DNA of 64,000 nt from an uncultured Acidobacteriota bacterium (GTDB lineage Bacteria; Acidobacteriota; Vicinamibacteria; Vicinamibacterales; UBA2999): positions 198,999 through 262,998 of the forward strand of contig CAVRUW010000009.1 of NCBI GenBank assembly GCA_963724485.1. The letters are read 5' to 3'. Below, piece after piece: positions 5,085 through 64,000 of this stretch (the first letter of the stretch is position 1; each line of letters opens with the position of its first letter). The notes under the pieces are model-generated. The model was not told the origin of the DNA, searched no databases, and worked only from the letters and a program-made list of their open reading frames with translations. Made by a program: the position numbers and the translations under genes.

Positions 5085-6461
5085 ATGACTCGAGCGATCG
5101 CGGGAATTTCGGCGGTTTTCGGGATTGTCTTGGCCGGCACGCTGGCCGTGACCGCGCAGGGCCAGGCGACTGGTCAGGCGGCAGCCAGCCGGCCGGCGCA
5201 GTCCACGGCCGCCAATGCTCCCACCTACAGCAAGGACGTCGCACCCGTCCTATACAAGCACTGCACCACGTGCCATCGACCGGGCGAGATTGCGCCCATG
5301 TCGCTGATGACCTACGAAGAGGCACGGCCCTGGGCTCGCGCCATTCGCGAGAATGTCGTCAGCGGCGCGATGCCGCCGTGGCACGCGGATCCGGCTCACG
5401 GCAAGTGGCTCAACGATCGTCGTTTGTCCGATGCAGAGAAAGATGTCATCAGTCGCTGGGTCGCGGCTGGCGCGCCACAGGGCGATCCGAAGGATCTGCC
5501 GGCGAAGCCGGTGTACGCGGAGGGCTGGGCGATCGGCGAACCGGATCTCGTCGCGAAGATGGAAACCGCATTCGAAGTGCCCGTAAGCGGCACCATCCCT
5601 TACCAGTACTTTGAAGTGCCGACGAACCTCACCGAAGACAAATGGGTCGAAGCACTCGAAGTGCGTGCTGGCGATCGCTCGGTGGTCCATCACGTGTTGG
5701 TCTACGTGCGTCATCCTGGAATGACGGCACCGACGGTAGCCTTCCGGCCAGCGAATCCTCCGGGAGGTCCAGCGCCGCCGCAGCAAGAGGATCCGTCGCA
5801 ACTCACCGGTTCGTCGCGCCCTCCTTCCGGAGCGCGTCGCGGTCCACTCATGACGCAAATCGCGCCCGGGACGCCGCCGACCGTCTACGTCCCTGGAACC
5901 GGGCTCTTGCTCAAAGCAGGCTCCGTGCTCACGTTCCAGATTCACTACACGACCAACGGCAAGGCAGCATCGGATCGCAGCATGGTCGGTTTCAGGTTTT
6001 CGAAGGAACGTCCCACGATTGAAGTGCGAACCAACGCGATGATGAACCCACGCTTCATGATTCCAGCGGGAGCGGAAAATCATCCGGTCGAATCCGGGGT
6101 TTCATTTGTCGAAGACGTGACGATTTACGGACTGATCCCGCACACTCATCTGCGCGGCAAGAGCTGGAACTACACAATGACGTGGCCCGACGGCAAGACG
6201 GAGACGATTCTCGCCGTTCCGAAGTACGACTTCGATTGGCAGACCGAGTACGTGTTTGCGACGCCACTTCGCGTGCCGAAGGGTTCGGTCCTGAAGGCAG
6301 TCGCGGTCTACGACAACTCGAAGAACAACAAGTCGAACCCCGATTCGACCAAGGACGTCTACTGGGGCGACCAGACGTGGGAAGAGATGCAGTACACCGG
6401 CATCACTTTCAGCATCGACAAGGAACGCGCCACGACGACCGCATCGGGACAGAAGCAGTAG
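5085..6461 (+). CDS. exported cytochrome c domain fused to a PHM/DBH-like type II copper monooxygenase fold
   Basis: GAGGA lies 5 nt before the ATG, and there is a signal peptide. The heme-c motif is CTTCH. Copper-ligand-like motifs are HHVLVY, FQIHYT, PHTHLRGK and EEMQY, matching the CuH His3 / CuM His2Met pattern. Confidence 0.7.
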   Translation: MTRAIAGISAVFGIVLAGTLAVTAQGQATGQAAASRPAQSTAANAPTYSKDVAPVLYKHCTTCHRPGEIAPMSLMTYEEARPWARAIRENVVSGAMPPWHADPAHGKWLNDRRLSDAEKDVISRWVAAGAPQGDPKDLPAKPVYAEGWAIGEPDLVAKMETAFEVPVSGTIPYQYFEVPTNLTEDKWVEALEVRAGDRSVVHHVLVYVRHPGMTAPTVAFRPANPPGGPAPPQQEDPSQLTGSSRPPSGARRGPLMTQIAPGTPPTVYVPGTGLLLKAGSVLTFQIHYTTNGKAASDRSMVGFRFSKERPTIEVRTNAMMNPRFMIPAGAENHPVESGVSFVEDVTIYGLIPHTHLRGKSWNYTMTWPDGKTETILAVPKYDFDWQTEYVFATPLRVPKGSVLKAVAVYDNSKNNKSNPDSTKDVYWGDQTWEEMQYTGITFSIDKERATTTASGQKQ

Positions 6462-6646: not shown

Positions 6647-7867
6647 ATGACCAACCGGGTGGCCGCGTGGATGACCTTTGCGGCTGCGGCGCTCGCCGCG
6701 GTCATCGTGCTGAGCCCCTCTCCCGTCTACTCGCACAAGCCAATTACCACGAGTGTTCTCTTCAAGAACGAGATCGCGCAGATCTTCCAGCGCAAGTGTT
6801 TCCAGTGCCACTCCGAGAACAACCTCGGCGTTTCGCTGACGACCTATACCGATGCCAGGCCGTGGGCCCGCGCGATCCGGGAAGAGATTCTCGAGCGAAA
6901 GATGCCGCCCTGGACCGCCGTGCCCGGGTACGGGCACTTCTCGAATGACATCAGCCTCAGCGCGCGCGAGATGGAGATCGTTCTCTCGTGGACGGATGGC
7001 GGTGCACCAAGCGGAGTCCTCAAAGTCGACGAATCGACACCGCCGGTGTACGTGCCACCGGCACCCGCATGGGATCGAGGCACGCCGGACAAGGTAGTAC
7101 CGATCGGCGGCGGTCAATCCATCGACGCTGGCGCCCCCTTCGAGGTCAAACGCTTCGTCGTCGACACGGGGTTTGATGCTGCGAAACGTGTGCGTGCACT
7201 TGCGTTGAAGCAAGGCGACAGGCGCGTGGTTCGTCACGCCGCTTTCTACGAGAACGCAACCGGCCGATGGCTCGGCGCATGGACACCCTGGCAAACGATC
7301 GCGACTCTCCCCGAGGCCGGTGCGTATCGACTTCCGGCACGGGCTCAGATCCTGGTTGAGATCGGGTACTCAGGCACAACGGAAGCAGTCACCGACAAGA
7401 GCGAGCTGGGGTTGTACTTCGACACCGGTTCGGGTCCCAGCGTCGACTCGATGGCGCTGCGCTCGCCGGAAACTTCATTGCCCGCGGGTGCGACGGCGCA
7501 TCGGGTTCGGACGGAGACGAAGATCTCGGCCGCGGTTTCGGTCGTCGCGCTGTGGCCGACACCAACGGATGGCGCGCGCTCGATCGAGATCGCCACGACC
7601 TCGCCGGATGGCGTGGTCTCGCCGTTGCTGTGGATCAAGGATTTCCGACCGGAGTGGCGCTCGCCCTACGTCCTGTCCTCGCCGGTTTCGCTGCCCGTGG
7701 GGACCCGCGTCACGATGACGACGTACTTCGACAACCCCTCCGACAAGACGAGCGTCGCACGAGCCCAGGCGTGGCTGGCGGTGGTGGCGAGTGGGACGGG
7801 AGGGACGGGTAGGTCGGGTGGGGCAGGTAGGGCTAGTGGGTCGGCTCGGTCCGGCCTACTGCGGTGA
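6647..7867 (+). CDS. paralog of 5085..6461: cytochrome c domain plus a degenerate (ligand-less) PHM-like domain
   Basis: CFQCH, ARPWARAIREE, MPPW and SWTDGGAPSG align with the upstream gene. The Cu-ligand positions read RH / EIGY / LWPT instead. The 3' end overlaps the convergent gene by 12 nt. Confidence 0.65.
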   Translation: MTNRVAAWMTFAAAALAAVIVLSPSPVYSHKPITTSVLFKNEIAQIFQRKCFQCHSENNLGVSLTTYTDARPWARAIREEILERKMPPWTAVPGYGHFSNDISLSAREMEIVLSWTDGGAPSGVLKVDESTPPVYVPPAPAWDRGTPDKVVPIGGGQSIDAGAPFEVKRFVVDTGFDAAKRVRALALKQGDRRVVRHAAFYENATGRWLGAWTPWQTIATLPEAGAYRLPARAQILVEIGYSGTTEAVTDKSELGLYFDTGSGPSVDSMALRSPETSLPAGATAHRVRTETKISAAVSVVALWPTPTDGARSIEIATTSPDGVVSPLLWIKDFRPEWRSPYVLSSPVSLPVGTRVTMTTYFDNPSDKTSVARAQAWLAVVASGTGGTGRSGGAGRASGSARSGLLR

Positions 7868-50250: not shown

Positions 50251-51393
50251 CTATCGGCTTTTTGCTTTTCCGTAGGCTTTCGACTGCTGCCCGACGATCT
50301 CGACGAGGTTGCCGATCGCGAGATGGACGTCGATCAAGTGCAGGCCCCAGCTTGGTACGACCTTGCCGTTGGTGACGACGTCGCCACCGATCTCGTCGGT
50401 TCGAGGGTCGTGTGGATCTTCGTTGACCGTCACTTCGAGGTACGACCCCTGGTCGTTCGAGACGCACTGAGCCGTCAGCAATCGCGGAAGGCTGACGAAC
50501 GGTGTGTTCACTGCTTGCGGCGGCGTCACCCACTCGCGGCCGGCGGCGCTCAAGTGCGCCTTCAGCTGACCCTTTCCGCCGGCTAATGCCGCGGGATTCG
50601 TGCACGCCGCCTCCATGCCTTCGCCCTGCACCTTGCCAAATCGCGAATCGGCAGGAGGTGGAGTCGTTGAGCGGAACGACACGTATGAGATCACGCAGCC
50701 CGTCTGATCCGACGCACGGCAGAGCGGAATGCTCTTGAACGCTCCGCCCACGTCCTTGCCCTTGGGCACGGCGACATTGGAGCCGGCGAGGATGGCAGAC
50801 ACGATCTGTGACTGAATCGGCTTGCCCTCAATCTCTCGTCGGATCAGTTCAGCAAGCACGCCCGACCCTTGCGAGTGGCCAATCAGCACGATGCCCCGGC
50901 CCTGGTTGTCGTTCTTGAGGTAGTGGGTCCAGGCGTTGAGTACGTCGCTGTAAGCGAGCGGGCGGTCGTTCGCGATCGGCTTGCCGGCAGTCGCTGCGCG
51001 GAGTGACGTCAGCGTGATCTGCCGGTACAGAGGCGCGTAGAGCCGGCACGTTGCAGCAAACCGGGCGAACTGCGCACGAATGACGTTGCGCTCCTCCGCC
51101 CCTGCCGTCATGTCGCTATTGCCCGTCGCATCGAGCGAGACGGTTGGATAGACGTAGAAGCAATCGATTGGCGGACTCGAGTGAGCGGCAAACGCTTCTC
51201 TGGTGAATCGCCCATCTTCGGTGACGACCGTGGTCGTCTGATCGACGGCGCACGCATCTTGCGCGGCGGACAGGCCGGGACGGCAGAGCCACGACTCGGG
51301 CTTGCCGTAGTCGTTTGGCGGCGCGGTCGTCTGCGCGGAGACACTTGCCGCCAGAGCGAACGCGATGGGCAGAGCGGTTGCGAGTGTTCTCAT
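50251..51393 (-). CDS. exported DUF3089-like alpha/beta-hydrolase
   Basis: ORF trimmed to the ATG at 51393 (MRTLATALPIAFALAASVSAQ). Motifs WLCRPG, DCFYVYPTVS and GHSQGS. Confidence 0.7.
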   Translation of the reverse strand: MRTLATALPIAFALAASVSAQTTAPPNDYGKPESWLCRPGLSAAQDACAVDQTTTVVTEDGRFTREAFAAHSSPPIDCFYVYPTVSLDATGNSDMTAGAEERNVIRAQFARFAATCRLYAPLYRQITLTSLRAATAGKPIANDRPLAYSDVLNAWTHYLKNDNQGRGIVLIGHSQGSGVLAELIRREIEGKPIQSQIVSAILAGSNVAVPKGKDVGGAFKSIPLCRASDQTGCVISYVSFRSTTPPPADSRFGKVQGEGMEAACTNPAALAGGKGQLKAHLSAAGREWVTPPQAVNTPFVSLPRLLTAQCVSNDQGSYLEVTVNEDPHDPRTDEIGGDVVTNGKVVPSWGLHLIDVHLAIGNLVEIVGQQSKAYGKAKSR

Positions 51394-52559
51394 TTCTTTT
51401 TCGCCAGGTACGCTTTCGACTGTTTGCTCACGATATCCAGAAGATTTCCCATCGTCAGGTTGACGTCGATCAGGTGCAGCCCCCAATTCGCCTGCGGCTT
51501 CCCGGCCATCCCGAGATCGCCGGGGATATCGTCGGCGCGTGGGTCGGCTGGATCCCCGTTCACCGTGATCTTGAGGAAGTGTCCGTTCTCGTTGGTGGCG
51601 CACTCGGCGGTCAAGAGGCCGGGCACGCTGACAAACGGCGTATCAATCGCCGCGCCCGTGCTGACCCACTGGTGTTTCTGTGGTGCGCCGCTCGCGATCA
51701 GGGTGCCCACGCCGGTCAGGTACGAGTGCAAGGGAGCGCTCCCGCCGGCGAGTGCCGCCGGGTTGGTGCAAATCGCCTCCATCCCTTCACCAGGAACGCG
51801 ACCGAAGAGCGTGTTTGCCGGCGGCTGGATGGTCGAGCGGAACGACGCGAAGGAGATGACGCAGCCGGTTTGCTCGGCCGATTTGCAGGTCGGTATGGTT
51901 TTGAAGGCACCGCCGACTCCCTTGCCCTTCGCTGCAGCGACGCTCGCTCCCATCAGAATCGCGGAGATGACTCGCGGCTGCGCGGGAGAGCCCTCGATCT
52001 CGCGAGCGATGAGGCCGGTCAGCACGTACGAACCTTGCGAGTGGCCAATCAGGACAACGCCACGACCGTTGTTGTCATTTTTCAGGTAGTAGTTCCAGGC
52101 GTCCTTGACGTCGTCGTAGCCGACGCCCTGATCGAGCGACACCGTTCCCCCCGCAAGGGCGGCCCGGAGTCCCGTGAGTGAGACCTGGCGATAAAGGGGC
52201 GCGTATGGGCGGCACTGCGAAGCAAAGCGCGCGAACTGCTGACGGATCACGTTGCGCTCTTCGTTGCCCGCGGCCATATCGCTGTTGGGCGTCGGGTCAG
52301 CCGACACGGTCGGGTAGACGTAGAAGCAGTCAATGGGCGCCTTCGGATTGCCGGTCCACGTCTCTTTCGTCAGCGTCCCATCCGCCGCGACGACGGTCGT
52401 CGTCAAGTCGATGGCGCAGGCATCGTCTGTGCGTCCGGGGCGGCACAGCCAGTTCTCTGCCTTGCTGTAGTCGTTTTTCTCTGGTGGCGCTTGCGCGAAA
52501 GTGGTGCCGCCGAAGGTCGTCGCAATCAAGCTCGCCGCTATCAAAAAGTGCCGCACCAT
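51390..52559 (-). CDS. exported DUF3089-like alpha/beta-hydrolase (tandem paralog)
   Basis: ATG at 52559 (MVRHFLIAASLIATTFGGTTFAQA), with the same motif set. Its stop overlaps the downstream start (ATGA). Confidence 0.7.
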   Translation of the reverse strand: MVRHFLIAASLIATTFGGTTFAQAPPEKNDYSKAENWLCRPGRTDDACAIDLTTTVVAADGTLTKETWTGNPKAPIDCFYVYPTVSADPTPNSDMAAGNEERNVIRQQFARFASQCRPYAPLYRQVSLTGLRAALAGGTVSLDQGVGYDDVKDAWNYYLKNDNNGRGVVLIGHSQGSYVLTGLIAREIEGSPAQPRVISAILMGASVAAAKGKGVGGAFKTIPTCKSAEQTGCVISFASFRSTIQPPANTLFGRVPGEGMEAICTNPAALAGGSAPLHSYLTGVGTLIASGAPQKHQWVSTGAAIDTPFVSVPGLLTAECATNENGHFLKITVNGDPADPRADDIPGDLGMAGKPQANWGLHLIDVNLTMGNLLDIVSKQSKAYLAKKK

Positions 52560-52579
52560 CGGGATTTCCTTTCGACTGG

Positions 52580-52672
52580 GAGTTGCAAGTTCCACAGTTC
52601 CAAGTTACAAGTTCAGTTTGCCAGTTGCGCAGCGCACGCGGTTTGTAACTTGAAACTTGTAACTTGTAACTA
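52580..52672. repeat. CAAGTTAC-family word-repeat hairpin
   Basis: The left arm gagttgcaagttccacagttccaagttacaagttcag pairs with the right arm gtttgtaacttgaaacttgtaacttgtaacta. Confidence 0.85.
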
Positions 52673-52687
52673 TCCCCACCACTCACT

Positions 52688-53509
52688 CTAGTGGGTCATT
52701 GAATAAAGAACGACGTTGATCCCCACCGCATAACCATCGATCGCGAAGTGATAGAAGTAATTGGGATCATCGCCTTCGCGCTCCCAGGAATCGCCGACGT
52801 CGGTGTTATGCGTCATCAGCACCATCATGCGACCGCCTTCGTCGAATATCGCGCGCGCCGTGGGCGTTGCACTATCGGCGCCGCGCTCTGATGTATCACC
52901 ACCGCTGCCCATCCAATAGTTGATCGATGGTATCTGCGGGACCTTCTGCACCACGAAGTGCGTGCGGAAGAGTGGATGATCAAGCGGCAGTTCAACGATT
53001 GGATATTGCCCTGACGGGAAGACGCGTCGGATCTGGTTCTCCCACGACTGCCAGGCATAGCTTCCCCAGAAGTCATCAGCCCAGAGAAATCCGCCCTTCA
53101 ACAGATACGCCCGCAGTTTTTCGACTTCCTCATCATCGAAGTAAGTTGCCCCCACTTCGGTCATCATCACGAACGGGCACTGAAACAGCGCTTCGTCCGT
53201 GAGCCGTACGACGAGGTGATTCGGATCGCGATTGGTGTCGAAGCTGACGGGTGTGCGCGTGAGCTCGGACAATCGAATCGATAGATTGACGTCGGCCTGC
53301 GGATAGTCGACGCCCCAGCCTCCGCCGTCGCCGCGTCCGCTGCGATAGGCGGCGCGGCAGAAATGAAAGGCGCCATCGGAGTCGGTGACTTCCGCCATCC
53401 GTACCGATGACGTGAACCGGCCACGGCGTTGCGCTTCGCCGTCGGATACGCCGGCGAGCAGCGCCACTAGTATCAATCCCGGAATAGCACGGGAGGCCGA
53501 CACAGGCAC
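52688..53509 (-). CDS. exported DUF4159-like protein
   Basis: It has a signal peptide. FHFCRAAYRSGRGDGGGWGVDYPQADVNLSIRLSELTRTPV resembles DUF4159 (from memory). Confidence 0.55.
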   Translation of the reverse strand: MPVSASRAIPGLILVALLAGVSDGEAQRRGRFTSSVRMAEVTDSDGAFHFCRAAYRSGRGDGGGWGVDYPQADVNLSIRLSELTRTPVSFDTNRDPNHLVVRLTDEALFQCPFVMMTEVGATYFDDEEVEKLRAYLLKGGFLWADDFWGSYAWQSWENQIRRVFPSGQYPIVELPLDHPLFRTHFVVQKVPQIPSINYWMGSGGDTSERGADSATPTARAIFDEGGRMMVLMTHNTDVGDSWEREGDDPNYFYHFAIDGYAVGINVVLYSMTH

Positions 53510-54134: not shown

Positions 54135-54269
54135 GCTTCCGCCTATGCCCTTTGCAGATGGTACGCATCGACATTCGAGTTGCCGTGGCGTAAAGTCGCC
54201 CTGCTGAGCGTTTTCTCGCGCTCGACGCGTTGACGCGGCGCGGCTGCTTAGGCTATACGGAGGCTTCTC

Positions 54270-56453
54270 ATGAACTCGCGGCCCGCCCCTCCCGCTCAAC
54301 GTGTCTCGCGACGCCGGTTCCTGCGCGACGCGACGGTCGGCGCGGGTTCGGTGGCCGCTGCGTCCAGCGCCCTCGAGGCGAAGCAGGCCACACGCCAGAG
54401 CAGGGCCGCCGGTGCCCTCGACCGGACGGCCAGAACCACTACGCCACCCGCCGCCCTCGACATTCGAATTCCCGATGAGCTGACCTCAGGATCCAACGCC
54501 GCCGCGAGCGAGATCCAATTCCCCATGACCGGCGCGCAGGTCTTTGCCCGGGCATGCAAGGAAGAAGGCGTGGCCGCGCTGTTTTGTTGCCCCGGCAACT
54601 ATGGCGTCATCCATGCAATCGCGAGCGCGGGGATTCCGACCTACTCGGGAAGGCACGAAGGCGCAATGACCCACGCGGCGGACGCGTTCATTCGCGTGAC
54701 CGGCGAGATTGCGGTGGCCTCCGGGACCGAAGGGCCGGGGTTCACCGACATGATTTGCGGCATCGCCTGTGCGAACGCCGCCCGCACGCCATTGCTCGTC
54801 GTCGCCAGCAACATGGCGCTGTTCCAGGAAGATACCGAGGCCGGCATCCAGCTCGCCTATCAGCAGCCCACCACGGTCGGGATGAAGAAGTACGGCAAGC
54901 GGTTGGTCACCCCCGGCCGTGTGCACGAGTACGCCGCGTATGCCTTCCGGCAGTTGCGAAGCGGCGTGCCGGGACCTGTGCATCTCGACTTTCCTGCTGA
55001 AGTCGCCTCTGCGCGATTCAAGGACGCCAGCGAGCTGTCCTATTACTTCGAGAAAGGCAAATACCGCACGGAGAGCTGGCCGCACCCGTCGCCCAAGCAA
55101 ATTGACGCCGCGGTCGCAATGCTCAAGGCCGCCGAGCGGCCGATCATCGTCTCCAGCAATGGTGTCTTCTATCGCCGCGGATGGGACGCACTGAAGCGTC
55201 TCGCCGAGAAGGCTCAGATTCCGGTCGTCGAATCGGGGGCGATGAAGGGGCAGTTCTCCGACGCGCACCCGCTCAGCGCGAACACGGCTCCAACCGCGCT
55301 CGCCAGCGCGGATGTCGTGGTGCTCGTTGGACAGCACTGCATGCCGACGGTCGGCGAGTTCGCGTTCGGCCCCGACGCCCGCTACATCCGCATCGATCAG
55401 TCGCATGAAGACATCGGTCGCAACCTGCCCATCGAGCTTGGCATCGTGAGTTGCGAGAAGGCAGCGCTCGAAGCATTGGCCGATGCGATGCCAGCAACGC
55501 GGCATGACGCATGGGTGGCGGAAATTGCAGCCGCGCGGGACAAGTTCGAGGCGCAAAACGACGAGTACTACAAGATCGGCGCGAGTTATACCGACGCGCT
55601 TCATCCGGCCGTGATCGCGAAGGAGCTATCGGATTTCTTGTATCGCGGCAGCATTCCTCGCGAACAGGTGACAATCGCGTCCGGCGGCTACGGGATTGCG
55701 CGCTACACGCGGCGCTGGCTGCGGGGCTATCGGCCCGGGCAGATCATGAATGGCGCTTATCAGTACGGCGCCATCGGACCCGATGTGGGCTACTCGTTAG
55801 GTGTGGCCGCCGCGGTTCATCACGGCATCGGACCTCAGGCGGCCGCCAAGGGCAGTCCCATTGTCTGCATTACAGGGGACGCAGGCTTCGGATACACGGC
55901 CATGGAGATGGAAACGCTGAGCAAATACCGTCTCCCGGTGATTGTGCTGGTTTACAACAACAATGCGTGGGGCACCTGGACGACGGCCCGGGAGGCCAAG
56001 GCGCTGCCATTGCATCTTTTCCAGGAGAACGTCCGATACGACAAGGTGGGCGAGGCCTTGGGCGCCCACGGAGAATACGTCACCAAACCGGGGGATTTCC
56101 GGCCCGCTCTCGAACGGGCCTGGCAAGTTGCCATCAAGGAAAGCCGCCCGTCGGTGATTAACTGTCAGGGCAAGAAGGAGTTTTGGCTTCGCGACCAGTA
56201 CCCGCCGGGGATGCTTGGCAAGATCGAGCCCGGGTGCATGTCGGTACTACCACTAGGGGCTGCCACGTTGCGGCCGCACGGTCCACGGTCCCACGGTCGC
56301 ACGGATCGAACGGTGGCTCCCGGGAGTCCTACCGTAGACCGTAGGCCCGAATTGGAGACCGGGGACCGGAGACGATGCGACGGCGCGAAGCCGCCGTCGC
56401 GAACAATGCGGCGCGCGCCTCGCCGCTGCTGGCTGATGTGCAGACGTTCGTAG
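54270..56453 (+). CDS. Tat-signal thiamine-diphosphate enzyme (acetolactate-synthase/pyruvate-oxidase superfamily)
   Basis: [26 protein letters not shown] is a twin-arginine signal. The catalytic Glu motif is GRHEGAM and the ThDP motif is [33 protein letters not shown]. The last 70 or so codons read through a repeat element. Confidence 0.8.
56277..56373. repeat. CACGGTC word-repeat region (weaker hairpin)
   Basis: gcacggtccacggtcccacggtcgcacgg has partially complementary ctaccgtagaccgtagg and ggagaccggggaccggagac downstream. It lies inside the 3' end of the ThDP ORF. Confidence 0.5.
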
Positions 56454-56510
56454 AGGTGATTCGCGTCGATGGGGGGCCCCGACGCGCGGACTCAGCGCGG
56501 TGGGGTGCAG

Positions 56511-56981
56511 ATGGATCGGTTCGCGGCGTCGTCCCGTATGGTGTGCGCAGCAGTCTTGTGGCTGGGCGCGTTCACCGTGCAGACACAGGACGCCCATCCA
56601 CCCCGCCCGCACCGTCATCCGTCAGCACAGCAGCTCGTGAATCCGGTGCCGTCGACGCCGGTGTCGATCGCAGCCGGGCGGCGCACTTACGTCACGCTCT
56701 GCGTGCGCTGCCACGGCCCGAGCGGCAAGGGTGACGGTGGTGGCGCAGGAGGCGGCGGACAACCCGCCGATTTGACCGATGAAGTCTGGGACCACGGGTC
56801 GAGCGATGGCGAGATCTTCGTGGTGCTCAGGGATGGCACGTCAGTGGACATGGAGGGATACGGCGAACGCGTCAGTGAGACCGATTTGTGGCACTTGGTG
56901 AACTACTTGAAAAGCTTGGCGGCGGCGCCCGCGACGCCTGGGTCGCGCGCCCCATTTGGAGACCGATCGATTAACCAGTAG
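56511..56981 (+). CDS. exported mono-heme c-type cytochrome
   Basis: ATG at 56511 (MDRFAASSRMVCAAVLWLGAFTVQT). Heme motif CVRCHGPSGKGDG. Confidence 0.75.
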   Translation: MDRFAASSRMVCAAVLWLGAFTVQTQDAHPPRPHRHPSAQQLVNPVPSTPVSIAAGRRTYVTLCVRCHGPSGKGDGGGAGGGGQPADLTDEVWDHGSSDGEIFVVLRDGTSVDMEGYGERVSETDLWHLVNYLKSLAAAPATPGSRAPFGDRSINQ

Positions 56982-57036: not shown

Positions 57037-60000
57037 ATGCGTAGGTTGTGGTTGCGTACTTTCCTCGCACTGTCGTGCGTGGTAGCGCCGGCGATAGCCG
57101 CGGCGCAGACGAGTAGCATCTCGGGTCAAGTCCGTGATGCCTCTGGTGCAGTCTTGCCGGGAGTTACGGTGGAGGTCGCCAGTCCGGCGCTCATCGAAAA
57201 GGTCCGCACGGCGGTGACCAACGATGAGGGTCGTTACTCCATCGTCAGCCTTCGACCAGGCACGTATACGGTGACCTTCACGCTTCCCGGGTTCGGTGTG
57301 GTGAAGCAGGAGGGGATCGAGCTCACGTCGGACTTCACCGCCAACGTGAATGCCGACATGAAGGTCGGCACGCTCGAAGAAACGATCACGGTGACTGGTG
57401 AATCACCCATCGTCGACACCCAGGCCATCACGCAGCGCCACGTGATGACCCGCGATGTGCTCGACGCCCTGCCCACGGGCCGCAACATTCAGGCAGTCGG
57501 CATCATGATCCCTGGCACGGCGCTCGCGCTTGGCGGCGGCGGCGCGCTGTCGCGCGACGTCGGCGGATCGGGCTCATTGCAGCAATCACCGTTGCAGTAC
57601 CGCGGCTCGGGCGACACGGTGCAGACCATCGAAGGACTGCGATTGAACAACTTGTGCGCGCAAGGTGCCTACAGCGGCGTCTACTGGAACGACGCCAGCT
57701 TCGAAGAGCTGAGTTACGTCACCGGCGCCGATTCGGCGGAAATGGGCCAGGGGGGCATGCGCGTCAACATGGTGCCGCGCGATGGCGCCAACCAGTTCCG
57801 CGGCCAGCTCATGGGCAACTTCGCCGGAGACTGGGGCTCTGACAACTGCGATTCGGGCGGAATCGGGCAGGCGTGCTCGCGATCGAACCTGAGCGGCAGC
57901 CGATCGTTCAATGCGAACAATTTCCTGACCAACGTCAGCGTGATCGAGAAGATCTGGGACTTCAACCCGTCGTTGGGCGGCCCGATCCTGCGCGACAAGC
58001 TGTGGTTCAACTACACGTTCCGCCACCAGGGCGTCGAGAAGACGGTCGCCAACAGCTACGCCGACTTGAATCCGTCACAGTTCATTTACGAGCCGGACTT
58101 CTCGAGCCCCGGTATCGACGACGGGCGAATCGTCAGCAATGCCGTTCGCGTGTCGTGGGCCGCTTCCGGCAAGGACAAGCTGTCCGTGTATCACGACAAC
58201 CAGCGTAAGTATCGCGACCACTGGGGCATCAACGCGACGCGCCCGCCGGACGCGACCGCCATTCAGGTCACACCGACCAGCTTCGTGAACGTCACGAAGT
58301 GGACCCGCACGCACACCAATCGCTTGCTGCTCGAAGCTGGCTTCGGCATCTACAACCAGGAATACACCGAGTTGTATCAGCCGATCGTCACTGGTCTCGA
58401 AGAAAAGGTGTGGGACCTCGAGGCGATTCGGAGATCGACCGTCTACAACGTGATCGACACGTCGAACAACCAGCAGACCAACGCGTTCTCCGCGCCTGCG
58501 GACCACTTCTCGGTGCTGCGGACGTTCATGGGCGCGGCATCCTACGTCACTGGTTCACACAACTTCCGGTTCGGCGCGACGCTGAGCAATGGCGACTGGC
58601 GCCTGATCGAAGCGTGGACCGGCGACGTGCAGCCGATCAACTTCAACGGTGGCGCGCCACAGTCGGCCACGCTGCGTCTGCCGAGGGATATGCGCAACGG
58701 CATCAAGCGCGATCTCGGCCTGTTCGTGCAGGATCGCTGGACCTTTAGTCGCATCACGCTGAACCTTGGGCTGCGGTACGACCAATTCATCGGCGAGACG
58801 CGCGAGAGTGAAGTCCTGCCGAATCGTTTCACCTTCACGGACCTGGCCAATGGCGTGAAGTACGGAGAATGCCCGGACGGCAAGGCGGGGCGCGGCTGCT
58901 ACGGCGAGGTGCAGAACTGGAAGGACATCTCTCCTCGCGTTGGCTTTGCGATGGACGTTTTCGGCGATGGCCGCACAGCTCTGAAAGCCAGCGTCGCTCG
59001 GTACGTCGCCGGCCAGAACGTCGCGGTGGCGCGAGAGATCAATCCTGTCGAAGGCCTCACTTCCACCGATACCCGCACGTGGACCGATCGGGACGGCAAC
59101 CGTCTGCCACTCGATGCCAGTGGTGCAATTCAGATCGACGAACTCGCACCCTCGACGTCAACGGCCACTTTCGGACGCAACGTGTCGACGACGTCCTACG
59201 ATCCTGGTGTGCTCAACGGCTGGCACAAGCGCGGCTACAACATGGAGTACACGATCGCGGCTCAGCATCAGCTCGCGGATCGAGTATCGGTGAACGGTGG
59301 CTATTACCGCCGCGAGTTCGGAAACCAGACGTTCACCGACGACCTGCGTTTCGATGCCAGCAGCTACAACTACTTCTGCCTCAACGCTCCGAGCGATGGC
59401 GATCTGCCCGGCGGCGGTGGCTATCAAGTGTGTGGACTCCCGGATTTGAAGCCGGAGATCTTTGCCCTGAACCTTCCGCAGAATAGCTTGATTCGCTTCT
59501 CCGATGACGTTGGCGGCGAAACCAACATCTATCAGGGATTCGACATCAACCTCGAGGGTCGATTCCGCAACGGCGCCTTCCTGAAAGGCGGCATCGGGGC
59601 AACCACGCGCACCTTCGACCAGTGCAATCTGCTCGCGGCTGGTCCGGAAGCCACAACGGTGGCGTTGACATCTCTTGGGACCGAGACGTACAGCGACGGC
59701 ACCAACTATTGTCACCGCGAGTACCCCTATCGGCCCGATGTGAAGCTCTCAGGCAACTATCCGTTGCCGTGGGGTATCCAGCTGGCCGGCACGTACCAGT
59801 TCAGCCGCGGTGTTCAGACTGGTGGCGCTGGACCTGCCATTCTTGCCAGCTACACGCTGAGCAACGCGCTGGTCACTCCGATCAAGGGGAGTGCGTGGAC
59901 CGGCGTGGCATCACGAACCGTCGCGTTGATTCGTGAAGGCCTCGAGTACGGCGAGCACAATTTGAGCCAGCTCGATATTCGACTCGGCAAGCGTTTCGAA

Positions 60001-60171
60001 GTTGGTCGCGCCCGTCTGCGCGTGGACTTCGATCTCTACAACGTCTTCAACAGCAGCTGGCCCTACACCGTGACGAACACCTACTCGGCGACGGCAACCA
60101 GCCAGTGGCTGCGTCCGACCAACGTGCTGCAGCACCGCTTCTTCAAGTTTGGAGGGCAGTTGTCATTCTGA
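57037..60171 (+). CDS. TonB-dependent receptor with an N-terminal carboxypeptidase-regulatory-like domain
   Basis: ATG at 57037 (MRRLWLRTFLALSCVVAPAIAAAQT). ISGQVRDASGAVLPGVTVEVASPALIEKVRTAVTNDEGRYSI is the CarboxypepD_reg-like domain. The protein ends in a terminal Phe (GGQLSF). Confidence 0.85.
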   Translation: MRRLWLRTFLALSCVVAPAIAAAQTSSISGQVRDASGAVLPGVTVEVASPALIEKVRTAVTNDEGRYSIVSLRPGTYTVTFTLPGFGVVKQEGIELTSDFTANVNADMKVGTLEETITVTGESPIVDTQAITQRHVMTRDVLDALPTGRNIQAVGIMIPGTALALGGGGALSRDVGGSGSLQQSPLQYRGSGDTVQTIEGLRLNNLCAQGAYSGVYWNDASFEELSYVTGADSAEMGQGGMRVNMVPRDGANQFRGQLMGNFAGDWGSDNCDSGGIGQACSRSNLSGSRSFNANNFLTNVSVIEKIWDFNPSLGGPILRDKLWFNYTFRHQGVEKTVANSYADLNPSQFIYEPDFSSPGIDDGRIVSNAVRVSWAASGKDKLSVYHDNQRKYRDHWGINATRPPDATAIQVTPTSFVNVTKWTRTHTNRLLLEAGFGIYNQEYTELYQPIVTGLEEKVWDLEAIRRSTVYNVIDTSNNQQTNAFSAPADHFSVLRTFMGAASYVTGSHNFRFGATLSNGDWRLIEAWTGDVQPINFNGGAPQSATLRLPRDMRNGIKRDLGLFVQDRWTFSRITLNLGLRYDQFIGETRESEVLPNRFTFTDLANGVKYGECPDGKAGRGCYGEVQNWKDISPRVGFAMDVFGDGRTALKASVARYVAGQNVAVAREINPVEGLTSTDTRTWTDRDGNRLPLDASGAIQIDELAPSTSTATFGRNVSTTSYDPGVLNGWHKRGYNMEYTIAAQHQLADRVSVNGGYYRREFGNQTFTDDLRFDASSYNYFCLNAPSDGDLPGGGGYQVCGLPDLKPEIFALNLPQNSLIRFSDDVGGETNIYQGFDINLEGRFRNGAFLKGGIGATTRTFDQCNLLAAGPEATTVALTSLGTETYSDGTNYCHREYPYRPDVKLSGNYPLPWGIQLAGTYQFSRGVQTGGAGPAILASYTLSNALVTPIKGSAWTGVASRTVALIREGLEYGEHNLSQLDIRLGKRFEVGRARLRVDFDLYNVFNSSWPYTVTNTYSATATSQWLRPTNVLQHRFFKFGGQLSF

Positions 60172-60181
60172 GGGCCGAGAA

Positions 60182-60241
60182 CAGGGAGATCGGGGAGATC
60201 AGGGAGTTGGAATTTTCTCCCTGAACTCCCTGAACTCCCAG
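60182..60241. repeat. GGGAGAT/CAGGGAGTT word-repeat hairpin
   Basis: The left arm cagggagatcggggagatcagggagttgg pairs with the right arm ttctccctgaactccctgaactcccag. Confidence 0.85.
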
Positions 60242-60307
60242 TCCTCGTCCCGCGTTAGGCTGGTAGGGCGGGTGGGCCAGTTCGGTCCACTCGCCCTTTC
60301 TCTTCGT

Positions 60308-61921
60308 ATGAAACGTCCCGGGCTACTACGGCCTTCCTGCCTCGTCCTCGTTGTCCTCGCTCTCGCACCTTCGGCTGTTGCGCAGCACGCGGCGCATCGC
60401 CTCGCGCCGATTGCGTTGGAGATTCTCGAACGGCCGCTCTCCATTCGAACCGCGATCGGGCGCGCGCCCGACGCTGTGTCGACGACGTCGAAGGACGCAC
60501 AGGCGTTTTACGATCAAGGGCTCGCTTTCCTTCATTCGTTTACGTGGATTGAAGCCGCCAGGTCATTCCACACAGCACTCCGGCACGACCCGAAACTGGC
60601 ATTGGCGCACGTCGGGTTGAGTGTTGCCTACGTCGAGCTCAATCGACCGGCCGAGGCGCGCAAGGCAATCGACACCGCGCGTGCAATGGCGGGAACACTC
60701 CCCGATCACGATCGTCGTCACGTGGACGCGCGCGAACTGCAAATGCGCGCGGAGGATGCGCCCGGTGACGCTTCGCGGCTCGCCGCGTATCGCAAGTCGC
60801 TCGACGACGCGATCGCGGCGTTGCCGAAAGACGTCGAGTTTCTCTTGCTGCGCGGCATCGCGGAGTCGCCTGATCCAGCGGACCGCGGTCAAGGCAGCGT
60901 CGCGACGGCCATGCCGTATTACGAGAAAGCCCTCGCGATTGCGCCGGGCTCGTTCGCCGCGCATCACTACATGGCGCACGCCTACGAGAACACCAACCGT
61001 GCGGCCCAGGCCTTGCCTCACGCGAGCGCCTTTGCCAAAGAAGCATCGACGATTCCGCACGCCCGGCATATGCACGGACACAGCTTGTGGCGGCTTGGTC
61101 GTGTGTTCGAAGCCATCGCGGAGTTCGAAGCCGCAGACCGGATTCATCGCGAATACGCGAAGACCGAGAAAATTCCTCTCGAAGCGGATTGGCACGTCGA
61201 GCACAATCTCGGTCTGTTGGGAACCTCGCTTTCCTACACCGGCCAAGTGAAGCGCGCCGAGACACTCCTGAAATTCTCGTTCGCTTTGCCGACCAACCTG
61301 CTGGTGCAGGCGTACAACAAACGGGAGTGGCCGATGTTCCTGCGCGCGCGTGGGCGTTACGCCGAAGCAGAAGCCGCAGCCAAAGCGCTTCTGGCGGATC
61401 CCAACCCCGTCGTGCAGGCGACCGGTCACATCGAAGTCGGACACGTGCTGCTGGCGCAGAATCGTTGGGGCGATGCGGCCACTGCCTCGAACGCTGCACT
61501 ACGCCTCTTGCGGAACGCGCCAGGTGGCGGGATCGCCGCCGCCGCATTGCTCGCCCTTCAAGGCGAGTTCAACCTCCGCACCGCCGAACGTACGAAAGGC
61601 CGTGCGACGCTCGAGGAGGCCGTTCGTCGAATGCGTGCGGCAGCCGGGCCCGATGCTTGGGTGCAGGCGACTTTTCAGATCGAGGCCATCGCACGCGCCG
61701 CACGAGCCGTGGGCGACTGGGAACTGGCCGGAGGAATGGCCAAACAGCTGATCGATCATGATCCGTCGTACGCCGGATCGCATTACGCCATGGCTCTCGT
61801 GGCCGAGCACGATGGCGACGCCGCGGCCGCGAAGACGGAGTTTGCGTTGGCGACCAAACACTGGGCGAAGGCGGATCCGGATCTTGCGGAATTGGTGGAG
61901 TCGAGGAGGAAGGCGAAATGA
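60308..61921 (+). CDS. exported TPR repeat protein
   Basis: ATG at 60308 (MKRPGLLRPSCLVLVVLALAPSAVA). It has TPR-like repeats (AQAFYDQGLAFLHSFTWIEAARSFHTALRHDPKLALA...). Confidence 0.7.
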   Translation: MKRPGLLRPSCLVLVVLALAPSAVAQHAAHRLAPIALEILERPLSIRTAIGRAPDAVSTTSKDAQAFYDQGLAFLHSFTWIEAARSFHTALRHDPKLALAHVGLSVAYVELNRPAEARKAIDTARAMAGTLPDHDRRHVDARELQMRAEDAPGDASRLAAYRKSLDDAIAALPKDVEFLLLRGIAESPDPADRGQGSVATAMPYYEKALAIAPGSFAAHHYMAHAYENTNRAAQALPHASAFAKEASTIPHARHMHGHSLWRLGRVFEAIAEFEAADRIHREYAKTEKIPLEADWHVEHNLGLLGTSLSYTGQVKRAETLLKFSFALPTNLLVQAYNKREWPMFLRARGRYAEAEAAAKALLADPNPVVQATGHIEVGHVLLAQNRWGDAATASNAALRLLRNAPGGGIAAAALLALQGEFNLRTAERTKGRATLEEAVRRMRAAAGPDAWVQATFQIEAIARAARAVGDWELAGGMAKQLIDHDPSYAGSHYAMALVAEHDGDAAAAKTEFALATKHWAKADPDLAELVESRRKAK

Positions 61922-62842
61922 GAAAGTTGTCAGTTACCAGTAACTGGAAACTGATTCTGCCGGCGGCACTAGTTCTTTCGGGGACGCTGGCCGGAGCGCA
62001 AACCTCGCCGCCAGCGCAGCCGACCGGCTTCCACCATCTCCACCTGAACTCCACAGACCCCCCGGCTGCCATCGCCTGGTACACCAAGACCTTCGCCGTG
62101 ACCTCTCGCGCGACGGTGGCGGGATTCGAGGGCATCGCGACCGAGAAGATTCATTTGCTGTTCACGCGAACTGACAAAGCGCCTAGCAGCGCACTGGACT
62201 CGCCAATCTGGCATTTCGGTTGGGGCAGCCCGGACATGCCGGGCGACTTTGCGATGCATCAAACCAACGGCGTGAAGTTCGCGACCCCCCTCAGCAAGCT
62301 CGCGCAGGGGACGGTGTTTGCCTACATGAACGCGCCCGATGGCGCGCTCGTCGAAATCAATTCGGCTCAGAGCCGCGCCTTTGTACACGTCCACCTGTAC
62401 AGCGAGCATCCGGTGTGTGCGGCTGACTGGTATGTGACGCACCTCGGGGCGGCACGACGCGGCGCTGCACGGGAGGTGCCCCTCGACTTCGCTCGGGACA
62501 AGCCCCTCGACTCCGCTAGGGGCAAGCCCCTGCGAGGCGCCTTATGCCGCGCCGAGCGAACCGCTGGCCGTCATCCGCTCGCCTGCCGCGACCGTGCGTT
62601 TTGACGACATCAGCCTCATAATCTACCCACGCCAGCGGCCCGGGGCGCTGGTTTCCTCAGCCGGACACGTTGTCGACCATCTCGCTCTTTCGGTGGCGGA
62701 TCTTGCCGCGACCGTCAAGCGTCTGGAAGCCACAGGCGTGAAGGTGCTGCGCGGCGTGCATCCGTTTGGCAGTGGACAGGGCAAGGCAGCGTTGATAGAA
62801 GGTCCAGACTCGATCGTCATTGAACTTGTGGAGCAGCCATGA
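61918..62842 (+). pseudogene. exported four-module VOC (glyoxalase/dioxygenase-fold) protein split by a +1 frameshift
   Basis: Modules 1-3 are in frame 61918 (GFHHLHLNS..., IWHFGWGS..., FVHVHLYSEHPVCAADWYVTHLGA). The rest of module 3 plus module 4 is in frame 62594 (TVRFDDISLIIYP..., HVVDHLALSVADLAATVKRLE...). A 24-nt tandem repeat lies at the junction. Confidence 0.6.
62478..62531. repeat. 24-nt tandem repeat (2.25 copies) gcccctcgacttcgctcgggacaa / gcccctcgactccgctaggggcaa / gcccct
   Basis: Read directly from the sequence. Copies start at 62478, 62502 and 62526. Confidence 0.85.
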
Positions 62843-63225
62843 CCAGACGTTTTCTCTTCGTCGTTGTAGTAGGACTCTTGACAGCAATACCGATGGCGAT
62901 GGGCACCTCAGCCCAGGCCAAGATTGACGTGAGCGGAGAATGGGCCTTCGAGGTCCAAACCGACGGCGGCGCCGGCAGCCCGACCTTTGTGTTCAATCAG
63001 GCTGGCGACAAGCTGACCGGAAAGTACAAAGGCACGTTTGGTGAGGCCGATCTCGCTGGCACGGTCACCGGTAAGACCATCAAGTTTTCGATCAAAGTCG
63101 ACGCGCAGGGTACGCCGTTGACGATCGTTTACGACGGTGAGGTCGAGAGCAACACCGCCATGAAAGGCAAGGTCGATCTCGGCGGGATGGGCGCCGGGAC
63201 CTTTACGGGAAAGCGAACCAAGTGA
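62839..63225 (+). CDS. small exported hypothetical protein (128 aa, beta-rich)
   Basis: The ATG overlaps the upstream stop (ATGA). Signal peptide MTRRFLFVVVVGLLTAIPMAMGTSAQA. Non-repetitive composition. Confidence 0.6.
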   Translation: MTRRFLFVVVVGLLTAIPMAMGTSAQAKIDVSGEWAFEVQTDGGAGSPTFVFNQAGDKLTGKYKGTFGEADLAGTVTGKTIKFSIKVDAQGTPLTIVYDGEVESNTAMKGKVDLGGMGAGTFTGKRTK

Positions 63226-64000
63226 TGTCGCGCCGCGCCGTTTCGCTCGGGCTGCTCGGCGCAGTCGTGACGCTCTCGGCGGTGGTGCTGAGCGCCACAA
63301 TCGGGTCGCCTGAACGAACAGCCTCACTGGAGGGACGGGGCTTTAGCCCCGTCGATTCCGTCCAGGCCGCCGACGGCGCTCGCGTCTACAACGAACGGTG
63401 CGCGACCTGCCACGATGCGCCCGACAGTACACGCTCGCCCGGGCGAGAGCAGTTACGCACGCGAACGGTCGCGCAAATCGTCGCAGCGCTCGATTCGGGT
63501 GGCGTGATGGCCGCACAGGGTCAACCGCTCTCGCCGGCTGAGAGACAATCCGTCGCTGCGTTCCTGGCGACGATGACCGACGCGGCCGCGGCGACAACAG
63601 CCAAACCAACGCCACCGGCGACACCACCAGCCGCACCCGCGGCTGCTGCGGTTGATCCCGCAGTCGGCGCTTGCGCGCCCTCCATGATGAACTCATCGTT
63701 GCCAAATCTCTCCGCTCACCCGATGTGGAACGGTTGGGGCAACGATCTGGCGAACACGCGATTCCAACCCGCCAAGGCTGCCGGGTTGACCGCCACCGAT
63801 GTCCCCAAGCTCACGTTGAAATGGGCATTCGGTTTTGCCGGCACGGCCGCTTCGTCAGGACAACCAACCGTCGCGGGCGGGCGAGTGTTCGTGGGAAATC
63901 CCAACGGGTTCGTGTACTCGCTCGACGCGACTACGGGATGCACCTATTGGTCGTTCAAGGCGGATGGCGGCGTTCGTACCGCGGTCAGCATCGCGCCCAT
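63225..64000 (+). CDS. exported cytochrome c domain fused to a PQQ-type beta-propeller (5' part; open to the window end)
   Basis: The ATG at 63225 shares one base with the upstream TGA. Heme motif CATCH, then a Pro/Ala linker. The propeller start is LKWAFGFAGTAASSGQPTVAGGRVFVGNPNGFVYSLDATTGCTYWSF. It is not in the ORF track because no stop is reached. Confidence 0.75.
   Translation, partial: MSRRAVSLGLLGAVVTLSAVVLSATIGSPERTASLEGRGFSPVDSVQAADGARVYNERCATCHDAPDSTRSPGREQLRTRTVAQIVAALDSGGVMAAQGQPLSPAERQSVAAFLATMTDAAAATTAKPTPPATPPAAPAAAAVDPAVGACAPSMMNSSLPNLSAHPMWNGWGNDLANTRFQPAKAAGLTATDVPKLTLKWAFGFAGTAASSGQPTVAGGRVFVGNPNGFVYSLDATTGCTYWSFKADGGVRTAVSIAP

Follow-up and report, generated by a model that had tools for sequence, protein, structure and literature searches.

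Can an enzyme that depends on thiamine diphosphate (ThDP) work outside the cytoplasm and hand its electrons to a cytochrome c? The question is raised by a locus of an uncultured Acidobacteriota bacterium (Vicinamibacteria; Vicinamibacterales; UBA2999), found in a stretch of 64,000 nucleotides (assembly GCA_963724485.1, contig CAVRUW010000009.1, positions 198,999 to 262,998 of the forward strand) that was analysed as a whole and is called here the window. In it, a gene for a ThDP enzyme with an apparent twin-arginine leader (T) is followed by a gene for a small cytochrome c (C), and the original prediction, made from the letters of the DNA, had read the pair as a possible periplasmic ThDP oxidoreductase module. 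ThDP enzymes are cytoplasmic or organellar in the textbooks, and to our knowledge the recognised cofactors of substrates of the pathway for twin-arginine translocation (Tat) do not include ThDP. Thiamine goes unmentioned in a review of this pathway (PMC7317946), and a full-text search of the literature returned no description of a Tat-exported or periplasmic ThDP enzyme, although absence there is not proof of absence. The results below point to an undescribed enzyme system of a soil acidobacterium, with predicted export and activity outside the cytoplasm, to which a third protein of about 150 aa (S) belongs.

Relatives of T were collected by a search of 5.8 billion proteins, which gave more than 1,800 matches; the top 120 were 71-94% identical to T and most of them were 640-665 aa long. 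The boundary of the family was set by a scan of 1.84 billion cluster representatives. Gene context was determined with tblastn in 6 loci found by exact protein identity and in 80 loci of species-representative genomes. Adjacency was counted over the 72 non-redundant loci in which the flank downstream of T spans 1.5 kb or more, the consensus of the twin-arginine (RR) motif was derived from 83 non-redundant loci, and phyletic counts refer to 301 evenly sampled Acidobacteriota genomes from 185 genera. The protein alignment of T held 18 sequences, that of the window and 17 homologues. The nearest genomic relatives of the window are the loci L007 and L008, and the T protein of L007 is 91% identical to that of the window.

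T is a ThDP enzyme of a discrete family

Three Pfam domains were detected in T, TPP_enzyme_N, TPP_enzyme_M and TPP_enzyme_C (residues 86-183, 278-403 and 482-632), with scores of 77.9, 82 and 77 bits and E-values of 1e-21 to 1e-23, all of them above cutoff. In the alignment, the cofactor-activating Glu130 in the motif GRHEG was invariant, as were G536, D537, N563, N564 and N565 in GDAGFG...NNNAWG. With its three domains, the activating Glu and a GDG-X(24-27)-NN motif for Mg-ThDP, T falls within the POX/ALS/OXC ('decarboxylase-like') superfamily of pyruvate oxidases, acetolactate synthases and oxalyl-CoA decarboxylases, which bears out the ALS/pyruvate-oxidase-type signatures named in the original prediction.

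The affiliation within the superfamily is a different matter. T matched 51 ThDP families of NCBIfam, the best being an acetolactate synthase model and those of oxalyl-CoA decarboxylase and its relatives, and every score was below half of the curated cutoff. The acetolactate synthase models NF004516, the best match, and TIGR00118 gave 225.5 against a cutoff of 587 and 181 against 538, and the models of oxalyl-CoA decarboxylase and 2-hydroxyacyl-CoA lyase (OXC/HACL) also fell below their equivalog cutoffs (NF006721, 194.4 against 557; TIGR03254, 179.8 against 739.4; NF058623, 172.7 against 600). The AHAS-type segment 'RFDDR' was absent from T in the 18-sequence alignment. Therefore, T is a member of the ThDP superfamily that lies in no curated family.

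Full-length members of its own family were found at 60%, 50% and 48% identity, with related C-termini in all three, and the representatives of the clusters at 60% and 50% identity (P0122 and P0123) also carry the RR leader. Below 48%, the next matches were at most 34% identical, about 550 aa long and leaderless. By these comparisons, the family of T is acidobacterial and sharply delimited. As a separate observation, the T gene of one complete genome (G110:C1:3528166-3530075) seems to consist of two abutting matches (residues 9-369 and residues 363-661) and is either frameshifted or split; the S gene next to it is intact.

A canonical and conserved twin-arginine leader

The N-terminus of T shows the sequence features of Tat substrates, that is, a Z-R-R-x-hydrophobic-hydrophobic motif, a moderately hydrophobic h-region and a small-x-small c-region. 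The h-region is rich in Gly, Ala and Ser, with a mean Kyte-Doolittle hydropathy of 1.0; lower hydrophobicity and more Gly are described for Tat h-regions (PMC7317946). When the frames upstream of the T core were inspected, the RR motif was present in 84 of the 86 fetched loci and in 82 of the 83 non-redundant ones, with the consensus S(67)-R-R-x-F(73)-[I/L/M]-x-K(45).

At the DNA level, comparison of the first 40 codons of T between the window and L007 revealed 19 identical, 17 synonymous and 4 non-synonymous codons, and this excess of synonymous over non-synonymous changes indicates that the leader is translated and under purifying selection. A better-supported start further downstream would have removed the signal. 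No such start does so, because in-frame ATG codons resume only with codon 86, upstream of which lie both the RR motif and a conserved IRIPxEF arm. The genome encodes one TatC protein (PF00902, 209 bits, G000:C19:74681-75307). Judged from its sequence, the leader of T is a canonical, conserved twin-arginine signal and predicts export of the protein; the leader seen in the original prediction, with its ALEA c-region, is thus no chance resemblance, given its presence in nearly all loci and the bias of its codons towards synonymous change.

S is a third partner that accompanies T

A third gene, outside the original reading of the locus, was revealed by the comparison of loci. S adjoins T in 69 of the 72 loci, with a median gap of 97 nucleotides (nt) and often with an overlap of the T stop codon, and both S and C are present at 56 of them. 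Of the 301 genomes, 15 contain T, and precisely these 15 contain S; they belong to 9 of the 185 genera, and each of the four genomes with two full copies of T also has two copies of S.

S has no signal peptide, and no match to it was found in Pfam, NCBIfam or the sequences of the PDB. Its AlphaFold2 model, built from 47 sequences, reached a confidence (pLDDT) of 93.9, with the topology alpha-beta4-alpha-beta2-alpha2. A Foldseek search of the PDB with this model gave nothing significant, the best matches among small proteins being ExsC, a chaperone of type III secretion, and PA14_16140 (E 0.03-0.04, TM-score 0.40-0.54). As neither the sequence libraries nor the structures gave a significant match, S is regarded as a new family.

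S co-occurs strictly with T, is translationally coupled to it and has no export signal, which suggests that S is a dedicated chaperone of T or a subunit exported together with it. NapD, TorD/DmsD and ExsC (PDB 3KXY) are likewise small alpha/beta proteins without signal peptide, and S shares with the Tat chaperones for redox-enzyme maturation among them (NapD, TorD/DmsD) a gene that lies beside that of a Tat substrate and is often translationally coupled to it. In contrast, no significant match in sequence or structure links S to any of these proteins (Foldseek, best E 0.03, TM-score not above 0.54). Its chaperone role is putative, and the likeness of the modelled fold to chaperones is taken as a hint only.

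In the window, as in L007 and L008, no S gene lies between T and C. The only copy of the genome is found 49 kb from T (Table 1), and in the genomes of L007 and L008 S is also located on the contig of T, about 47 kb away. Since these two genomes show the same split, the separation of S from T is real and lineage-wide; in the congeneric genome G208, T is still followed directly by S.

Among the loci with the label Blastocatellia, some have a gene for a luciferase-like (LLM) monooxygenase inserted between T and S (L028:8957-11249, L040, L041:8915-9751, L043, L044, L046, L062 and L077). Some of these loci also hold genes for a GNAT acetyltransferase and a nucleotidyltransferase between T and S, and export signals are apparently absent from all these proteins.

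C is a cytochrome c that diverges together with T

The product of the gene downstream of T was matched by the Pfam models PF13442 (Cytochrome_CBB3, 41.5 bits) and PF00034 (Cytochrom_C, 34.5 bits). It has a signal peptide, a single CxxCH motif and a distal Met, the DM of GTSxDM being conserved in 64 sequences, and is thus a class I c-type cytochrome. Its open reading frame (ORF) offers two candidate starts (56469/56511-56981), of which the ATG at 56511 is the likely one, because it is closely preceded by a purine-rich GGUGGGG that L007 and L008 share. The orthologues of C are 43-62% identical to it, and those of L007 and L008 78-80%. The mono-haem cytochrome c gene of the original prediction was therefore confirmed, with its CVRCH motif, whereas the distance of 57 nt from the ThDP gene was not: after correction of the T frame (see below), the gap measures 254 nt.

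C lies near T in 58 of the 72 loci, with a median gap of 59 nt between S and C where S precedes it. The usual order is T-S-C, and the orders S-C-T or C-T-S were found in a paralogous clade of about 55% identity and in another of 61%. Where T is duplicated, every copy has a C to itself, and the C proteins of the paralogues are as far from those of the main clade as their T proteins are. This grouping in altered orders and in duplicates indicates that the trio has been kept together through rearrangement and duplication. The pairwise distances of T and C were closely correlated (Spearman 0.90), and those of T and S less so (0.65).

The original prediction had left room for C to belong to the uptake genes downstream. 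When loci were compared, C was found with T whether a TonB-type receptor was present or absent, following T and S also in loci that lack the receptor. As C accompanies T regardless of the receptor and its divergence tracks that of T, its assignment to an uptake system is disfavoured and was rejected.

Cofactors and closest known systems

A search of PDB sequences with T retrieved OXC and HACL/synthase entries at E-values of 4e-51 to 3e-30, benzaldehyde lyase and formolase at about 1e-35, glyoxylate carboligase at 1e-29, and acetolactate synthases as well. With the middle domain alone, the ADP-type OXC/HACL proteins (2e-18) were much closer than the FAD-type enzymes, of which glyoxylate carboligase reached 1e-7, cyclohexanedione hydrolase 2e-6 and pyruvate oxidase 6e-5, and the glycine-rich loop reads SSNG in the 18-sequence alignment. 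A flavin in T, which had been considered possible at the outset, is therefore not supported, since the middle domain is nearest to flavin-free OXC/HACL and the SSNG loop is degenerate. An iron-sulphur cluster as an electron relay was rejected by inspection: the six invariant cysteines (C96, C107, C163, C357, C395 and C533) are scattered over the three domains and form no CxxC-type motif. The relatives of T have ordinary core residues at these positions.

Nearest to T by sequence among solved proteins are the OXC/HACL enzymes (PDB 8VZJ, 8VZA, 6XN8, 2Q27, 7PT1 and 2C31), and they agree with it in the three-domain fold of ThDP enzymes, in the activating Glu and in the GDG...NN motif. In contrast, they are only about 30% identical, reside in the cytoplasm or in peroxisomes and act on coenzyme A (CoA) thioesters, and they lack the Tat leader, the C-terminal ...EPGCMSYYH tail and the S and cytochrome partners that T has. 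CoA thioesters are unlikely substrates for a periplasmic T. Pyruvate oxidase and PoxB, a pyruvate:quinone oxidoreductase, belong to the same superfamily; they oxidise the enamine and pass electrons to an external acceptor, as is proposed for T. As distinct from what is predicted for T, they contain FAD and reside in the cytoplasm or at the cytoplasmic face of the membrane; their glycine-rich loop is GxG, where T has SSNG, and they have no cytochrome c partner.

The architecture of the T-C pair has a parallel in unrelated enzymes. In the SorAB sulfite dehydrogenase and in the flavocytochromes c FccAB and PchCF, the catalytic subunit acquires its cofactor in the cytoplasm, leaves it through the Tat pathway and is encoded beside a small, Sec-exported monohaem cytochrome c that acts as acceptor. 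These systems use molybdopterin or FAD, have no homology to T and include no third protein like S. The three-subunit dehydrogenases of acetic acid bacteria, in which one subunit crosses the membrane on the Tat signal of its partner, resemble T-S-C in composition: the fructose, gluconate and sorbitol enzymes consist of a large catalytic subunit, a small subunit and a cytochrome c. They differ in that the small subunit carries the Tat signal, the cytochrome is membrane-bound with three haems, the cofactor is FAD and no part is homologous to T, S or C. Fructose dehydrogenase is a membrane-bound enzyme of three subunits with FAD and haem c (PMC8601194).

A proposed periplasmic ThDP enzyme with a dedicated electron acceptor

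From these data, T is very probably a ThDP enzyme that works outside the cytoplasm and has S as its obligate partner. The fuller proposal, that T is a periplasmic ThDP enzyme which passes electrons to C as its dedicated cytochrome, is the reading towards which we lean, with modest confidence. According to this proposal, T would fold and bind ThDP and Mg2+ in the cytoplasm, probably with a structural ADP as in oxalyl-CoA decarboxylase and not with FAD, and would then be exported through the Tat pathway by its S-R-R-x-F-L leader. It would depend on S, either as a cytoplasmic chaperone for maturation or Tat proofreading or as a subunit carried out with it. In the periplasm, T would attack a small carbonyl compound, such as a 2-oxo acid, an aldehyde or an alpha-dicarbonyl, and C would oxidise the ThDP-bound carbanion/enamine in two one-electron steps and pass the electrons on, either into the respiratory chain or to further haem proteins of the periplasm. 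With C as acceptor, electrons would leave the ThDP enamine directly to the haem. A direct exit of electrons from ThDP has precedents in pyruvate:ferredoxin oxidoreductase and in the side reactions that ThDP decarboxylases undergo with artificial acceptors.

If the proposal holds, Tat biology would gain a further class of cofactor, and T would be a periplasmic dehydrogenase of a new type or else a new enzyme of C-C cleavage, with S as a new family of partner proteins, and the system would give a hint of how abundant soil Acidobacteria (Vicinamibacteria and Blastocatellia) oxidise small carbonyls outside the cell.

Several points weigh against it. The closest solved relatives of T (OXC, HACL and benzaldehyde lyase) are non-redox and flavin-free, so that no built-in relay from ThDP to haem is evident in T. 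C is not adjacent in 14 of the 72 loci, its co-divergence with T partly reflects shared species history, and it could serve neighbouring enzymes with haem domains (M and Q, described below) instead of T. In this genome, moreover, S is not adjacent to T, and T as assembled lacks the near-invariant C-terminal YYH.

The copy in the window and its 3' end

The last two points raise the possibility that the copy in the window is a decaying remnant of a family that is functional elsewhere, with a real insertion, a lost C-terminus followed by a junk tail of 69 residues, a displaced S and a broken neighbouring gene for a VOC protein (V). All 17 aligned homologues of T stop at ...EPGCMSYYH, and the ORF of the window runs 69 residues further. 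Among the 86 loci, 85 end in ...EPG[CVLT]M/L-S/A-Y-[YNF]-H, the exception being L052, which is truncated by the end of its contig. At this place the window reads ATGTCGGTACTACCACTAG, against ATGTC-GTACTACCACTGA in L007 and L008, and the DNA alignment sets ATGTCGGTAC of the window against ATGTC-GTAC. One extra G at 56243/56244 thus shifts the frame of T just before its last three codons, a lesion that lies, like S, beyond the original reading of the locus. With the stop corrected to 56254-56256, the distance from T to the ATG of C at 56511 becomes the 254 nt given above.

A second frame break was found 6 kb downstream in the VOC gene, which has one extra C (CCCC for CCC); compared with the single ORF of L007, L008 and L009, it also contains an in-frame insertion of about 17 codons that consists of a 24-nt tandem repeat. 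Decay would explain the frameshift of T relative to L007 and L008, the frame break in V and the distance of S. In contrast, both breaks amount to one surplus base in a short homopolymer (GG for G, CCCC for CCC), as is usual for assembly errors, the remainder of T shows 91-94% identity with intact relatives and bears no further lesion, and the split of S from T is common to the genomes of L007 and L008, where T is intact. Two such +1 errors within 8.5 kb quite probably reflect assembly error and not real decay, and for the extra G in T an assembly error is the most likely origin. A decaying copy is therefore considered rather unlikely.

The spacer between the corrected T and C occupies the place of S in most relatives. 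Its first part (56257-56420) contains the repeat words CACGGTC and CCGTAGACCGTAGG and gave a predicted folding energy of -86.5 kcal/mol (z-score -2.6). A similar spacer without S is present in L007 and L008. No terminator with a run of T was found in the spacer, and scans for promoters and terminators around the T-C locus were uninformative.

Alternative roles of T and C

The other explanation with some standing keeps T in the periplasm and removes the electron transfer. T would be a non-redox ThDP lyase, decarboxylase or carboligase that, like benzaldehyde lyase or HACL, breaks or makes the C-C bond beside a carbonyl, and C would be a carrier shared with neighbouring enzymes, namely a cytochrome c fused to a PHM-like copper monooxygenase (M), a cytochrome c fused to a PQQ-type propeller (Q) and the VOC protein, all within one periplasmic catabolic pathway. 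The non-oxidative, flavin-free nature of the nearest solved relatives is in agreement with this explanation, as are the frequent clustering of T-S-C with M-M-DUF1579, Q and V, the presence of M in all 15 genomes that have T, and the 12 of 72 loci in which T-S has no adjacent C. Against it, M, Q and V are all missing within 7 kb in about 30 T-S-C loci, most of them with the label Vicinamibacterales, and C remains beside T where loci are rearranged or duplicated and follows the divergence of T more closely than S does. M itself was found in 68 of the 301 genomes, usually in several copies and often in 5-9; as 53 of these genomes have no T, M does not need C. For these reasons, a non-redox T with a shared C is held to be unlikely. 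On the same count, M as an obligate partner of T was rejected as a general rule.

Still less probable is that the RR segment of T is not a cleaved export signal, being instead an uncleaved Tat signal-anchor that holds T at the outer face of the membrane or a motif with another role in a cytoplasmic T: the AxA-like c-region is indeed poorly conserved among homologues and the h-region is followed, as in tethered proteins, by a long linker of low complexity and variable sequence, but the Tat consensus is matched at five positions in nearly all loci and the partners C, M, Q and V carry export signals, and only the cytoplasmic version would contradict the proposal made above, since an anchored T would still be extracytoplasmic.

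Copper monooxygenases and other neighbouring genes

The coordinates of all features are collected in Table 1.

Table 1. Features located in and around the T-C locus, with positions numbered from the first nucleotide of the window
Feature	Positions	Strand	Basis or remark
S, about 150-aa partner protein, the only copy of the genome	4498-4995	-	displaced 49 kb from T
M1, Sec-exported cytochrome c domain with predicted PHM/DBH-like two-copper monooxygenase core (HH...H / HxH...M)	5085-6461	+	AlphaFold2 model, Foldseek
Degenerate M paralogue, cytochrome c domain kept, copper ligands lost	6647-7867	+	
Shine-Dalgarno-like GGAGG	54259-54263	+	6 nt before the ATG of T; direct reading
T, ORF as assembled	54270-56453	+	727 aa
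T, corrected frame	54270-56256	+	661 aa, three-domain ThDP enzyme
Predicted Tat signal peptide of T, residues 1-37; S-R-R-R-F-L-R at 54306-54326, c-region ALEA	54270-54380	+	sequence, alignment, codon comparison
Variable low-complexity linker, then conserved IRIPxE[FL] arm (residues 38-85)	54381-54524	+	alignment; upstream frames of 86 loci
ThDP core, residues 86-638 (Pyr, middle and PP domains)	54525-56183	+	Pfam, NCBIfam, PDB sequence search, invariant columns
Conserved C-terminal tail and real stop TAG (56254-56256)	56184-56256	+	protein and DNA alignment; last three codons and stop out of frame as assembled
Out-of-frame read-through tail, Arg/Pro/Gly-rich, without homologue, outside the protein family	56245-56453	+	alignments
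Structured intergenic spacer with CACGGTC-type repeat words	56257-56510	+	fold z-score -2.6; place of S in most relatives
C, monohaem class I cytochrome c; Sec-type signal peptide, conserved HPPxPHRHP arm, CVRCH at 56700-56714, distal Met in GTSVDME	56511-56981	+	Pfam, NCBIfam, orthologues
R, outer-membrane TonB-dependent-receptor-like protein with CarboxypepD_reg N-terminal domain	57037-60171	+	lineage-specific neighbour of T-C
P, exported TPR protein	60149-61921	+	likely start an internal Met near 60308
V, exported protein of VOC/glyoxalase fold	61918-62842	+	recurs in 18 loci; split here
Q, cytochrome c fused to PQQ-type beta-propeller (quinohaemoprotein-like dehydrogenase)	63222-64000	+	recurs in 18 loci; runs off the end of the window

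The gene of M1 is arranged head-to-head (divergently) with that of S, and this genome is thereby a natural split-locus variant that ties S to genes of copper monooxygenases fused to cytochrome c. The AlphaFold2 model of M1 had a pLDDT of 80, and its top 31 Foldseek matches were all peptidylglycine alpha-hydroxylating monooxygenase (PHM) or dopamine beta-hydroxylase (DBH), at E 7e-14 to 1e-9. The ligands were located at H202, H203 and H287 for CuH and at H353, H355 and M435 for CuM; H203 was invariant and the other five were present in at least 90% of 33 sequences. In the locus L005, the M2 protein was matched by Pfam Cu2_monoox_C with 27.4 bits against a cutoff of 23. With a modelled two-domain beta-sandwich core and these ligands, M is assigned to the PHM/DBH type-2 copper monooxygenases and is predicted to bind copper. 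The haem domain fused to it suggests that a cytochrome, and not ascorbate, is its source of electrons.

Tandem M-M-DUF1579 genes flank T-S-C in 28 loci (for example, M1-M2 at L005:3978-6847). One could imagine from this that T-S-C is a self-contained generator of periplasmic reductant, in which T would oxidise a small 2-oxo acid or aldehyde and C would feed the electrons to the haem domains of M, as a bacterial replacement for ascorbate. In one possible form, the loop would be closed by M, which would release a glyoxylate-type product that T oxidises. This arrangement is quite improbable in our estimation; in its favour are the presence of M in every T genome of the sample, these 28 loci, and the position of the only S of this genome head-to-head with M1.

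Upstream of T, the window contains at 50251-52595 and 52688-53509 (both on the minus strand) two tandem paralogues of DUF3089 proteins resembling alpha/beta-hydrolases and a DUF4159 protein, none of which is kept beside T in other genomes. Downstream, Q continues beyond the end of the window, and a further example of this gene was located at L028:12188-14074.

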